Assembly: GCA_965223155.1 (NCBI GenBank)
Contig: CBDCVR010000013.1
Span: 896,001-960,000, forward strand
Direction: 5' to 3'
Length of the DNA stretch: 64,000 nt
Source of the DNA: Candidatus Multivoradales bacterium
GTDB taxonomy: Bacteria > Acidobacteriota > Thermoanaerobaculia > Multivoradales > JAHEKO01
Of the stretch, positions 12,595 to 17,128 are shown piece by piece. Every line of letters begins with the position of its first letter. Positions within the stretch are counted from its first letter, which is position 1. A program made the position numbers and the translations under genes. A model generated the notes under the pieces. That model was not told the origin of the DNA. It searched no databases and saw only the letters and a list, made by a program, of their open reading frames with translations.

Positions 12595-13407
12595 ATGCGA
12601 GTGACAAGAAATCTAAAGAAGAGTACTGCGAGTATCGCTGCACTGTGTGCAGTTCTATCCCCCGCAGCCGCCACCGCGCAGTCCACAGGACCCCGCACTC
12701 AGTTTGGCGCCGAAAGTTTCCACGAGAACCACAGTGCCACGGCGACATCCTTGACGACTTCGCGCGGCTTCTCCGTGGTCGTCGTCGAAGCACACGAGCA
12801 CGTTGGCGAAAAGCTATTCAACGACGCCATTCGAGTGAGCGTCAGCAGCCCCTGGGGAGAGCACTTCGAGGCCTACTTCGTAGATCACAGGAGCTTCAAG
12901 AGAATCCGAATCGTCGGAGTGGGAGAGTACAAGTTCTACCCCGGTCCAGAGGCGGGCCCTCTCACAACACCCATGGACTTCGTCTCGATCGAGACAGCTC
13001 AAGGTGTTCGAGGAGAGCACGTCGGCAACCGTGTAGAACGAGTGACCCATGGCCTGGAAACGATCGACAACATCGACCTGTACCAGGACATGGCGCTCGA
13101 GATCCACAAGAGCTTCTCGCCAGAATTCCTTGAGGGTCTTAGAGAGCTCAGCCGTCCCAGCCTCGTGCCGGCAGGCTGCAGTCTCGAGATACTGGAATGT
13201 TCTCTCGCGGTGATAGGGTGGATTGGAAGCGTAGCCGCTTTCGGACCGGCCTGTGTATATGGACTGACTCTGGGGTGTATCGCCGCGATCCTTGTCCATG
13301 AAGCTGCCAACGGCAGCGTCATCATCGCTTGCGGCAAAGCCGGCGCCTGCCTACAGGCAGAACAAGAGGAGGCTCAGCATCCCCGGACCAATCCGGACTG
13401 CGGATAG
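12595..13407 (+). CDS. Secreted precursor with a C-terminal hydrophobic 6-Cys domain (halocin C8/bacteriocin-like)
   Basis: GAGGAG RBS; Sec signal (...SPAAATA|Q); C-terminal region GCSLEILECSLAVIGWIGSVAAFGPACVYGLTLGCIAAILVHEAANGSVIIACGKAGACLQ; lower GC than the flanks. The CDS is solid, the function is inferred. Confidence 0.6.
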   Translation: MRVTRNLKKSTASIAALCAVLSPAAATAQSTGPRTQFGAESFHENHSATATSLTTSRGFSVVVVEAHEHVGEKLFNDAIRVSVSSPWGEHFEAYFVDHRSFKRIRIVGVGEYKFYPGPEAGPLTTPMDFVSIETAQGVRGEHVGNRVERVTHGLETIDNIDLYQDMALEIHKSFSPEFLEGLRELSRPSLVPAGCSLEILECSLAVIGWIGSVAAFGPACVYGLTLGCIAAILVHEAANGSVIIACGKAGACLQAEQEEAQHPRTNPDCG

Positions 13408-13431
13408 AGTCAATCCTCTGAGGAGCGCGTC

Positions 13432-13734
13432 GTGGATTCAACACCTTGGCTCATCGCTCAACTCGTCATTGGCAACGTACTCTTGCTGATCATGCTCGGG
13501 TCCATGCGCGTCGGAGATCTCGAGAGGCAGGGAAAGAGGCTTCCCGCAATCGGGATGTTCGTCGCGTGTCTTTCCCTCTTTCTGTTGGCCGGAATCGCAC
13601 TCGCCCGGAACCTGGGTACGTGGTCCGAAACGCAAGTGGTCTTGAGCGCACTAGGCTTCGGCGCCCTATCGGCACTTACGATTCTGGCTGGCGTGCGGGT
13701 GTGGCGGTTTCCTTCTTCTCGGCACGGCGCATGA
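13432..13734 (+). CDS. Small 3-TM membrane protein, putative immunity partner
   Basis: GAGGAG RBS before GTG; three hydrophobic segments in 100 aa; starts 24 nt after the precursor gene. Confidence 0.65.
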   Translation: MDSTPWLIAQLVIGNVLLLIMLGSMRVGDLERQGKRLPAIGMFVACLSLFLLAGIALARNLGTWSETQVVLSALGFGALSALTILAGVRVWRFPSSRHGA

Positions 13735-13736
13735 CC

Positions 13737-13776
13737 GAATAGCCGAACCGTCGAAAAGGCGACGAAAGGCTATTCG
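13737..13776. terminator. Hairpin immediately after the two-gene unit (possible terminator or processing site)
   Basis: CGAATAGCC...GGCTATTCG outer stem with inner CGTCG/CGACG; no U-tract. Confidence 0.4.
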
Positions 13777-13921
13777 AGGCCGACGTCAAGCGAGGCGTCC
13801 GGTGTAGGTAGCGGCTGCTTGCACGAAGTGCCAGGCACGTCCAAATGAGGGACCGTTGGCGAGAGACCGTCGCGGCCGGCAGGATTGCGAGGAATAGGTA
13901 TCCTTCTATGAGTCGGTCGGT

Positions 13922-14160
13922 TGGCGTCAAGAGTTTCGTTTCTTCTTTTTGTAGTTTTCCTTAGGTTTGGATCGAGGCTTGGGACGAGCTTCTATTCGCA
14001 CTCTGTAGGGTTCTTCTTTGAACCGGTGCATGGTGAGTTTTGCGTCCGTTTAGGAATCGATGCTCCCATCTGTCACACGGTGTCGGGGCCACCAAGGATA
14101 CTTTCGGAGTCATCGAACCTCTCAATCCGTCCTTGCTTGTTGGTCGTCTAGTTATCTCTT
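13922..14160 (-). ncRNA. Putative seekRNA/bridge RNA of the IS1111-type element
   Basis: Two stem/internal-loop modules. The one at 14061-14112 carries GUAUCCUU and GUGACAGA, matching the two strands of the reconstructed target GTATCCTTCTGTCAC. RNA ends are approximate. Confidence 0.78.
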
Positions 14161-15174
14161 CTACGCTGCCTTGGGAAAGGCTCGGAAGCTCTCACCTGTC
14201 ACCCACAGCCTGTGGAGCAACACCGCGATCTTCCTAGCTAGCGCGACCACGGCCTTGCCCTTACCCAGCCTCTCGACCAGGCCCTCAGCCCATCTCTTGA
14301 GTGACGACTCTTTGCGACAGTTCAACGCCGCATGAGCTGCCTGCACCAAGAGTCTGCGCATCTCCGAGTCGCCCTCGCGAGTGATCCGGCCCCTGACCTC
14401 ATGCCCTCCTGAGCTGCGAAGCGACGGTCTCAAGCCCAGACACGCTCCGACGTCGCGGCTTTTCTCGAACCGATCCGGACGATCCATCCAGCCGACGAAC
14501 GCAAGGCTCACCAGAGGCCCCACACCAGGAACCGTCTGCAGCCGACGGACCAGCTCGTTTGATCTCGACTCGGAGATGAGGTCGTCTTCGAGATGGTGGA
14601 TCCGATCGGTCAGCTCGCCGATTGTCGTTACCAGAGGTTCGAGCGCTCCCAACAGGCCGGCTTCGACCGACATCGACGCGTACCGAGCCACGAAGCTCTT
14701 CGCCGGACATGAGGGCACTCGGTAGCCCTGTGCCCGCAGCGTTCCGCGTACGGAGTTGATCAGCGAGGTCCTGGTCTTCACCAGACTCGTTCGGACCCGA
14801 AGACGCGTCCGAAGCTCTTGGGCCTCACCTGTGCGCTGGTAGACTGGTCGAAGCAAACCCAGATCCAACCGGCTCAAACGAGCCAGGATCTCGGCGTCGA
14901 TTCCGTCCGTCTTCAGGGTCGATTCCGCGATCAGACGTACCCGGCGTGGATTGACCACCATCACCTCATGGCCGAGCTCAGACAGCAGTCGATAGACCCA
15001 GGGTGTGACCGGACCGCTCTCGAGCGTCACCTGCGAGCGTTCCCGATTGGCGAAGAACCTTCGCAGGCCCGTCTCGGTCGTCGGAACCCGCCGGCGAACC
15101 GTCACCTCACCGTCTTCTGATACGCCACACACCTCGCTGTACTTCGAGTGAACATCGATGCCAAGATACTCCAT
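14161..15174 (-). CDS. IS110-family DEDD transposase/recombinase
   Basis: YLGIDVH, TLESG, KTDGIDA (DEDD RuvC-like domain); TVPGVG, GLRP..RSSGG (Ser), GRITREG, VALARK; GAAAGGAG RBS. Confidence 0.97.
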   Translation of the reverse strand: MEYLGIDVHSKYSEVCGVSEDGEVTVRRRVPTTETGLRRFFANRERSQVTLESGPVTPWVYRLLSELGHEVMVVNPRRVRLIAESTLKTDGIDAEILARLSRLDLGLLRPVYQRTGEAQELRTRLRVRTSLVKTRTSLINSVRGTLRAQGYRVPSCPAKSFVARYASMSVEAGLLGALEPLVTTIGELTDRIHHLEDDLISESRSNELVRRLQTVPGVGPLVSLAFVGWMDRPDRFEKSRDVGACLGLRPSLRSSGGHEVRGRITREGDSEMRRLLVQAAHAALNCRKESSLKRWAEGLVERLGKGKAVVALARKIAVLLHRLWVTGESFRAFPKAA

Positions 15175-15520
15175 GGTCGGTCTCCTTTCTCGGCTCTGAT
15201 GCCGATTCTTGGTTATCTCCAACTGGCACAGTGTCCCAGCTGGAGACCGACCGACTCATCTCATCTGTCACCGCTTCGACCGTTTCGACAGCTCGGAGCT
15301 TCGCGGCACCGTCAATCCACCACCGGCCAGCCGGGTCGGCCCGTTCAGGCCAGTGTTCTGCTCCACGAGCCTACGGCCCCTCCCTTCTAAGGCTTCCACC
15401 CTGAATCTGCCGCTGAACTGTCGGGACAACGGGGTCTGCTTCTAAAATCCCGCTACCATGCCGACCATCGCCGTAACTCCTGGCATCTCGATTCGCCGCT
15501 CCCCGTAGGTCGAGGAGAAA

Positions 15521-16045
15521 CTACACGAACCGCAGTCGCACATTAAACTCCTCCCAGAGTCTCCGAACGATCTCCTCTTCACAACTACCGGACCTTACGT
15601 CTGCCACGACACGGCCCTTGCTCTCGTCCTGAAAAAGCAGCAATACGAACTCAAAATCGCCGCTCAATGTATGGACGATTGACTGCCCAATCCCTTGCTT
15701 GATTGTCGAACCATAAGGGCTCTTCTTGTACTCGACCGCAACACGATAAGGGTGCGTGAGGATGAAGTCCGGGTAGTTGCGAGAACCAAATACCGGCCGC
15801 CGCTCCCGCCCGTAGACTCCCTCTTGCCCCTCCCAGTAGAAGGATGCATGAGCTTTGGCAATTGAATCCTTGTAACCAAGCTCCGAGAAGTACATCTCTA
15901 GGTATCGCACGATCAGAGGCCGGATCTCCGTCTGCACAGCGGACTCGGACTTCTTCGCGGTTTTCCTTCTGAACTGCGGATGCTTGACAATCGCAGTCAC
16001 GAGACCGTCGAGGAATTCGGTGGCTTTCTTGGTCTTCTTTCTCAC
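15521..16045 (-). CDS. Putative PD-(D/E)xK restriction-endonuclease-fold protein
   Basis: SESAVQ...NYPDFIL...VAVEYKK...KQGIGQ; low GC; starts 3 nt after the fbaB stop. Confidence 0.65.
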   Translation of the reverse strand: MRKKTKKATEFLDGLVTAIVKHPQFRRKTAKKSESAVQTEIRPLIVRYLEMYFSELGYKDSIAKAHASFYWEGQEGVYGRERRPVFGSRNYPDFILTHPYRVAVEYKKSPYGSTIKQGIGQSIVHTLSGDFEFVLLLFQDESKGRVVADVRSGSCEEEIVRRLWEEFNVRLRFV

Positions 16046-16048
16046 CCC

Positions 16049-17128
<1,080 letters not shown>

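Follow-up and report, generated by a model that had tools for sequence, protein, structure and literature searches.

Can the insertion site of a mobile element be read directly from a non-coding RNA encoded within that element? The question is raised by a 64,000-nucleotide (nt) stretch of a Candidatus Multivoradales bacterium genome (contig CBDCVR010000013.1, positions 896,001 to 960,000; the window, in whose coordinates plain positions are given below), which holds on its minus strand, between 13905 and 15266, a 1362-bp insertion sequence (IS) with a transposase gene and a non-coding region (NCR) in which the two strands of a predicted RNA loop match the DNA on either side of the insertion. 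At a probability of about 90%, the comparison of this element with its copies, empty sites and relatives points to an intact IS1111-type IS guided by a seek/bridge RNA, in which this first loop (loop 1) would be the target-binding loop.

The target site and the loop that matches it

Read from the minus strand, the RNA of 14112-14061 has the sequence UGACUCC-gaaa-GUAUCCUU-GGUG-gccccga-CACC-gu-GUGACAGA-ug-GGAGCA. Its first guide strand, GUAUCCUU, equals positions 13898-13905 (8/8), and its second, GUGACAGA, is the reverse complement of 15264-15271 (8/8); with the base composition of the 239-nt NCR, both 8-mers would be expected in this order within 40 nt only ~5e-7 times. A ViennaRNA fold of 14061-14112 gives an internal loop with a distal hairpin, closed by UCGAUGACUCC/GGGAGCAUCGA, and the arm as a whole (closing stem, internal loop and distal hairpin; 14057-14116, minus strand) shows compensatory pairs at alignment columns 19/98 and 43/75 among relatives. 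The top-strand match lies 5' of the bottom-strand match, the order described by Siddiquee et al. (2024, PMC11187229).

In each match the eighth base is IS sequence and lies outside the target. On the minus strand, the 5' strand guide GUAUCCU+U (14094-14101) equals the plus strand at 13898-13905, taking in 5 nt of flank, a CT core and 1 nt of IS end, while the 3' strand guide GUGAC-AG-AUG (14067-14076) is the reverse complement of 15262-15271, where 3 nt of IS end precede the CT core and 5 nt of flank follow it. Each guide, then, covers 5 nt of flank and the 2-nt core and continues into the IS end joined there (U on one side, AUG on the other), so that the nucleotides past the core fit the junctions that exchange creates but do not fit the empty target, a property of the handshake guides of IS621 (Hiraizumi et al. 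2024, PMC11208158).

The host genome (G000; 4.0 Mb in 15 contigs) carries 14 full copies of the IS and one further copy split by another IS. Twelve of the 14 full copies are identical over 1362 bp; one differs by a single substitution and one by a 1-nt insertion in the NCR. All 15 insertions (15/15) lie in the same site, with G(T/C)ATCCT to the left of the IS, GTCACC to its right and outer flanks that differ; the left flank is GTATCCT in 14 cases and GCATCCT in one, and the 1362 bp of the GCATCCT copy are identical to those of the others. The joined site, GTATCCTGTCAC(C), also occurs in the genome as 17 exact matches without an IS, whereas by our calculation chance would give a 12-mer ~0.5 times in the 8 Mb that both strands make up.

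Two of these 17 are empty alleles of occupied loci, each sharing 25-30-nt flanks with its occupied counterpart. The empty site at C14:574419 has the same flanks as the occupied copy on contig C11, where exactly 1362 extra nt (TCTATGAG...CTCATCT) stand between GTATCCT and GTCACC; the occupied allele on contig C7 has 2742 extra nt, made up of 1362, 1372 and 8, the last two owing to a nested IS256-like element. From this comparison of alleles it follows that the inserted DNA is 13905-15266, including one copy of the core, that the sole ambiguity at the junctions is the CT (a placement 2 bp to the left, at 13903-15264, is as valid), and that the target is GTATC-CT-GTCAC(C). The left half of this target with the core (GTATC and CT; 13898-13904, plus strand) matches the left part of the 17 empty sites, and the second core copy (15265-15266) with the right half, GTCAC(C) (15265-15272, plus strand), is common to all 15 insertions and the empty sites. 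The part covered by the guides is 12 bp long, GTATC-CT-GTCAC, and its core is the 2-bp CT.

An original prediction, made from the sequence of the window, had described the loop with its two 8/8 matches, the perfect 14-bp sub-terminal inverted repeats and the TCT at both junctions (13905-13907 and 15264-15266), all of which we find as it described them. It had also proposed a predictable target of ~15 bp, restored as GTATCCT-TCT-GTCAC when the element is removed; the target is indeed predictable, but its length is 12 bp, with no additional TCT. The allele comparison identifies the repeated TCT as no duplication, the left triplet being the IS end and the right one a single nt of IS followed by the CT core. 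The longer site, GTATCCTTCTGTCAC, has 0 matches in the genome at up to one mismatch and none at two; at up to three mismatches there are 34 matches, vs 16 for a reversed control pattern, and every match listed has exactly three, at occupied left junctions or scattered sites. Forty relatives yielded 2 single matches with one mismatch.

Occupied and empty alleles both occur in the assembly. The small contigs C2, C7 and C11 are alternative haplotypes (~94-99.8% identical) of regions in the three large contigs and differ from them in IS content. C7 is 98.9% identical to C14:355657-366092 and C11 corresponds to C14:570779-577038; the counterpart of C2, at C15:950-982 kb, is itself a multi-copy repeated region. 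The IS256-like element that interrupts one IS1111-type copy (C7:11411-12782, locus L087) is 1372 bp long, encodes a 435-aa Mutator-family transposase (PF00872) and has made an 8-bp duplication; identical copies lie at C14:571680-573051, C13:299686-301056 and C15:374671-376045.

The target is part of a dispersed repeat and is often found at both inverted ends of a unit of ~75 bp that resembles a miniature inverted-repeat transposable element (MITE) or a repetitive extragenic palindrome (REP), and solitary target sites with differing outer flanks are occupied as well. One such unit, at L088:4590-4670 (C13:301089-301169), has imperfect inverted ends of ~20 bp, GGTGACAGGATACnTATTTC ... GAAATAnGTATCCTGTCACC, with a target in each; others lie at C13:303681-303740, C14:561693-561740, C15:702806-702885 and C15:971281-971334. 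One end is occupied in three of seven end pairs and both ends in none (0/7), and the unit has no match in Rfam. A hot spot at C13:296500-308500 (L088) adjoins a tRNA gene (L088:981-1054) and contains a sister IS (termed B below), a 42-nt solo IS end (L019), the IS256-like element, two IS copies and several target repeats, together with an open reading frame (ORF) for a beta-lactamase-fold domain (PF00144); an Rfam scan of these 12 kb returned only the tRNA and two matches at chance level.

The IS has spread very recently to at least 15 repeat-borne sites. The identity of 12 of the 14 full copies, together with loci that exist in both occupied and empty form, indicates that it is probably active. 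Logan contigs of four runs (two samples of one study), searched over 13600-15600, contained no joints, circle junction or full-span contig, a result uninformative on excision since such contigs cannot reveal rare circles; their loose ends split at 13891-13897 and 15267-15277, the positions at which the flanks of the copies begin to differ.

Guides, flanks and competing explanations

If the loop directs insertion, its strands should change when the flanks do. We compared seven further insertions of related elements, drawn from a sister IS in the same genome and from relatives in other genomes and metagenomes, and in these the IS ends are unchanged while the loop strands differ and the flanks differ to match. 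The sister, IS B (L016), is present in two copies and shares 82% DNA identity with the element of the window (IS A), 86% amino-acid (aa) identity in the transposase and the same ends. Its guides are AAAAGGGUU and GUGCC-AG; its two copies, identical inside, differ at flank positions, reading AAAAGGGTT and GAAAGGCTT on one side and, in the plus orientation of the window, TCTGGAAC and TCTGGCAC on the other (GTTCCAG and GTGCCAG in element orientation). The distal stem of the loop carries a compensatory change from GGUG/CACC to GGAG/CUCC, and empty sites of the B type, GGTTCC-AC-CCTTTT, occur in the genome in another repeat family.

Relatives at 78-86% aa identity come from an Acidobacteria metagenome-assembled genome (MAG; L052) and from metagenome contigs (L071-L074 and L076). 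They have the same ends and an invariant second RNA domain, and their loop strands fall into three classes; the 3' guide varies with the flank as GTGAC, GTGCC or GTTCC. The guides of L052, L072, L073, L074 and L076 match their own flanks, with G:U pairs or single mismatches as the only exceptions, and L052 has GUAACC facing a flank of GTAGCC. Across six distinct elements, cognate guides and flanks agree at 92 of 96 positions, the unique maximum of 720 permutations (mean 69.2), although the six are kin, so that the permutation does not run over six fully independent events. The L052 genome also has an apparently empty site, GTAGCCTGTCACC, ~60 nt downstream of its IS (L052:3700-3790 in JADFQD010000008.1), which suggests the same kind of repeat-borne target there.

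Five more distant relatives (~43% aa identity), which come from four genomes and two of which are multi-copy, share this architecture, and in four of the five both strands of the target loop match their own flanks. A phylum-wide protein search of 400 other genomes gave six with a match at E <=1e-70, all at 42-44% identity, and no close relative among those 400. The search of genome contigs gave two loci, of which one (L052) was useful, and that of metagenome contigs 16; L072, L073, L074 and L076 were used in full, and L071, on a contig that stops within the RNA, contributed only its left junction and guides. L060 (genome G189), L075, L084 and loci at <=38% identity were left out of the comparisons.

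The search for further copies and empty sites that the original prediction had called for has, in short, brought out covariation of flanks with guides: the flanks follow the guides in B and in five close relatives, and more loosely in the five at ~43% identity. No insertion at an unrelated site with an unchanged loop, the observation that it had named as fatal to its claim, is found among the 15 copies, and its view of the element as RNA-guided and probably active is borne out at the strength given here.

Some observations, besides the kinship of the six elements, weigh against guidance by this RNA. The fold energies are no better than those of shuffled sequences (z -1.09 and -0.59); no matching family emerged from Rfam 15 on 13000-16500 at E up to 1; a scan of 13700-15500 for sigma-70 promoters and terminators found one hairpin and no full promoter in the integrated copy; and the 5' target guide of the distant relative L055 fits its single flank poorly, only the 3' strand being good. 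The production and processing of the RNA and its binding by the recombinase are predicted steps. A search for orphan copies of the RNA outside an IS found none, all 17 matches lying in the 15 A and two B copies.

Two other accounts of the flank matches can be set beside these data. GTATCCT and GTCACC might belong to a longer element, the loop then binding the donor by reading the ends of the element itself: misplaced ends are a recognized difficulty in the family (PMC11187229), all 15 copies have the same 7 and 6 nt outside the inverted repeats, and no site of the form GTATCCT-TCT-GTCAC was found. Yet GTATCCT and GTCACC abut, with no IS between them, at 17 sites, two of which share 25-30-nt flanks with occupied loci and differ from them by exactly 1362 or 2742 nt; the GCATCCT copy is otherwise identical over 1362 bp, and the two B copies, the same inside, part company at just these flank positions. 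The empty alleles refute a longer element, to which we assign almost no probability. Alternatively, the protein might recognize the MITE/REP-like repeat itself, with the agreement between RNA and flanks reflecting shared ancestry of NCR and repeat; conserved positions of the repeat beyond the guides (the C after GTCAC, and arms of the form GAAATA.. / ..ATTTC) fit this. We consider it very improbable, because proteins 78-86% identical, on elements with identical ends, occupy three unrelated classes of site with loop strands matching each, because the matches are shared between the two DNA strands with an overlap at the core, the pattern of the experimentally reprogrammed ISEc11 and IS621 (PMC11187229, PMC11208160), and because solitary sites with differing outer flanks are also used. 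Guidance by loop 1 remains the reading that we prefer.

Anatomy of the element and its candidate second loop

The inverted repeats of the element, 13908-13921 and 15246-15259, are complementary at 14 of 14 positions and both sub-terminal: the transposase-distal one has 3 nt (TCT) outside it and is kept in relatives, and the transposase-proximal one has 5 nt (CTCAT) and the core outside. There is one long ORF only, on the minus strand at 14161-15222, within which the transposase (recombinase) gene occupies 14161-15174, stop codon included, and encodes 337 aa. Its start is likely the ATG at 15174, since a Shine-Dalgarno motif, AAAGGAG, lies 7 nt upstream and every relative begins there, with the same MEYLGIDV. 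The protein contains PF01548 (DEDD_Tnp_IS110; 87.6 bits, cut-off 29, E 9e-25) and PF02371 (Transposase_20; 75.4 bits, cut-off 21.3, E 5e-21) and scores 241 bits, vs a cut-off of 140, with NCBIfam NF033542, 'IS110 family RNA-guided transposase'. Residues D7, E52, D90, D93 and S255 align with the catalytic residues in the chains of IS621 (8wt6) and ISCro4 (9t56), the roles of which (D, E, D, D and Ser) are named in PMC11208158; S255 lies in the SG motif GLRPSLRSSG. With its full ORF, both Pfam domains, the NF033542 match and the DEDD and SG-serine residues in place, the element can be called intact, as had been proposed.

The DEDD and Transposase_20 domains, the catalytic residues and a short core without a long target duplication place the element in the IS110 family. 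Within that family, IS1111 members have a transposase of 330-350 aa with a GL-P----S(t)G motif (PMC11187229) and sub-terminal inverted repeats of 7-17 bp (PMC11208160); the present element shares the repeats with short terminal extensions, the transposase length and motif, the order of the strand matches and a longer NCR downstream of the gene (256 nt, 13905-14160) than upstream (92 nt, 15175-15266). This placement is by structural criteria and pairwise tblastn: the transposase has ~31% aa identity to an annotated ISEc11-family transposase over 82% of its length and, among genes of plasmid records, 27-28% identity to IS4321/IS5075, the best identity in the plasmid collection being <=37%; phmmer finds distant similarity to IS621 (E 6e-10).

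By analogy with the family (PMC11187229, PMC11208160, PMC11208158), the element would excise as a circle, and its RNA would be made together with the transposase mRNA from a promoter assembled at the circle junction. The 5' strand of loop 1 (GUAUC-CU) would pair with one DNA strand in the half-site to one side of where insertion occurs and the 3' strand (GUGAC-AG) with the other DNA strand in the opposite half-site, both including the 2-bp core (CT on the plus strand); a complex of recombinase and RNA would in this way pair both target strands and recombine core to core, with a second loop holding the junction of the donor circle. A -35-like hexamer, TTGACG (13925-13930, minus strand), lies 22 nt before the end formed by the IS end and core, and TTGAC is held at this distance in close and distant relatives, which makes it a candidate for one half of a promoter located at the circle junction or directed outward. 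A conserved hairpin of the 5' untranslated region (CGGC-loop-GCCG; 15190-15205, minus strand), the loop of which varies among relatives, immediately precedes the Shine-Dalgarno motif and may regulate translation or block read-through transcripts.

Does the element carry the second loop that such a mechanism would use? A 153-nt region (13981-14133, minus strand) is kept among six distinct relatives except at the guide positions, and is a candidate long seek/bridge RNA with both loops. We propose a structure in which each of two arms consists of an internal loop and a hairpin; in it, 98.9% of alignment cells pair, vs 33-43% in slid controls, and four pairs show compensatory changes. The second arm (13982-14047, minus strand; stem GGACG/CGUCC, inner stem GCAC/GUGC and a hairpin), a candidate donor-binding loop, is invariant in close relatives apart from compensatory changes in its hairpin. 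On its 3' strand, AUAGAAG (13989-13995, minus strand) equals, at seven of seven positions, the last 5 nt of the transposase-distal end followed by the core in element orientation, matching the end CATAGA-AG in the same register as GUGAC-AG of loop 1. In L059, where the end is CATGGA-AG, the strand reads AUGGAAG, and over six elements the 3' strand matches its own end at 7/7 positions in four and 6/7 in two. As the 3' strand matches the right end of the IS with the core, the second loop would most likely hold the donor, that is the circle junction.

This assignment has points against it. The 5' strand of the loop, CUCACCAU (14030-14037, minus strand), is a weak, partial complement (5/7) of the core and the first 5 nt of the transposase-proximal end, and the match is partial and discontiguous in all six elements, for which reason we call the loop only a candidate donor-binding one. 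On the 3' strand, L058 has one G for an expected A and L056 differs at one position. The two stems that define the loop never vary in the six aligned relatives, and RNAalifold favours another closing helix, of columns 2-7 with 171-176; with the stems invariant, six close relatives cannot separate the two. By eye, the outer stem next to the second loop pairs despite sequence change (GGACG/CGUCC, CGCC/GGCG, CACC/GGUG, CCAC/GUGG and GGACC/GGUCC), in variants that come from the distant relatives at ~43% identity.

A short seekRNA with a single functional loop would make the second domain a scaffold, processing signal or stabilizer and leave the ends to be read by the protein through the sub-terminal repeats. 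For ISEc11, an 82-nt RNA with the target loop alone sufficed for transposition (Siddiquee et al., PMC11187229), and the invariant stems, the partial fit of the 5' strand and a 7-nt match on the 3' strand that leans on one covarying position in related elements (L059, L056) all agree with such an arrangement. Nonetheless AUAGAAG matches 7/7 in the register of the target guides and becomes AUGGAAG where the end changes, an exact 7-mer ending at the core is by our arithmetic expected ~0.004 times in the 65-nt domain, and donor-complementary nucleotides are reported in predicted IS1111 bridge RNAs (Durrant et al., PMC11208160); we regard a single loop as unlikely.

B-type elements add an observation on cores. 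In element orientation their target core is AC and their donor core AG, so that the two junctions carry different cores, the transposase-proximal one the donor core AG and the transposase-distal one the target core AC; at the core position their 5' guide strand has GU, not CU. Mismatches of this type (GT vs CT) are found in B (L016), L072 and L074, and empty B-type sites lie at C14:185511, 185569 and 187777. Top-strand cleavage 3' of the core would yield these junction cores. A fuller proposal, which we advance as a tentative possibility and would not yet favour, is that the ~150-nt RNA is a true two-loop bridge RNA, the second loop of which recognizes the 10 bp that separate the two sub-terminal repeats in the circle junction, that both target guides have junction-spanning nucleotides (1 and 3), and that this clade inserts naturally at cores unlike that of its donor.

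Relation to known systems

ISEc11, ISPa11 and ISKpn4 (Siddiquee et al. 2024, PMC11187229) resemble the element in several respects: the inverted repeats are sub-terminal, with short extensions at the termini; the transposase measures ~340 aa and has both the DEDD residues and the GL-P----SG motif; a long NCR lies downstream of the gene; and two short RNA segments match opposite target strands, overlapping where insertion takes place. The retargeting that close relatives have undergone in nature recalls ISEc11 and ISXne4, and the use of a repeat as target recalls ISPa11 with its REP sequences. The element differs from ISEc11, ISPa11 and ISKpn4 in target and in the lineage of its host, an Acidobacteria MAG being the closest record with a name, and its RNA is predicted. 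Like IS4321/IS5075 in transposon ends, it is inserted in one orientation into the terminal inverted repeat of a different unit, itself repeated or mobile; here, unlike there, the host unit is the ~75-bp MITE/REP-like repeat, and solitary sites are used too.

With IS621, as described by Durrant et al. (2024, PMC11208160) and Hiraizumi et al. (2024, PMC11208158), the element has in common a CT core in target, donor and both guide strands, an internal loop with a distal hairpin, handshake-like guide nucleotides, a candidate donor-matching second loop, the conserved catalytic residues and a REP-like target. By contrast, the RNA lies downstream of the gene here and upstream in IS621, the order of the strand matches relative to the gene is reversed, the sub-terminal repeats measure 14 bp vs 2-3 bp, and the 3' strand of the second loop has a contiguous 7-nt donor match, its other strand matching poorly.

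The kind of system is known and widely predicted, bridge RNAs having been predicted in the right end of 93% of IS1111s (PMC11208160), and its mechanism is established for ISEc11 and IS621; the element adds an example and no new mechanism, and 'candidate new orthologue', as the original prediction put it, was a claim of the right size. For annotation there is a lesson in the junctions, where taking a repeated triplet for a duplication can shift the target by 3 bp. The value of the locus lies in a single genome with occupied and empty alleles, an exact 2-bp core, a very recent burst of copies and a sister with swapped guides, extended by five metagenomic or MAG relatives that present three target classes for nearly the same protein with identical ends. 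It offers a starting point for an IS1111-type recombinase far from the enterobacterial examples, and a data set in which it can be asked whether the 'long' RNAs of IS1111 elements contain a genuine donor loop and how the recombinase copes with mismatched cores. If the tentative two-loop proposal is true, the lineage would offer a compact recombinase that is less strict about its core, together with six natural guide sets ready for use.

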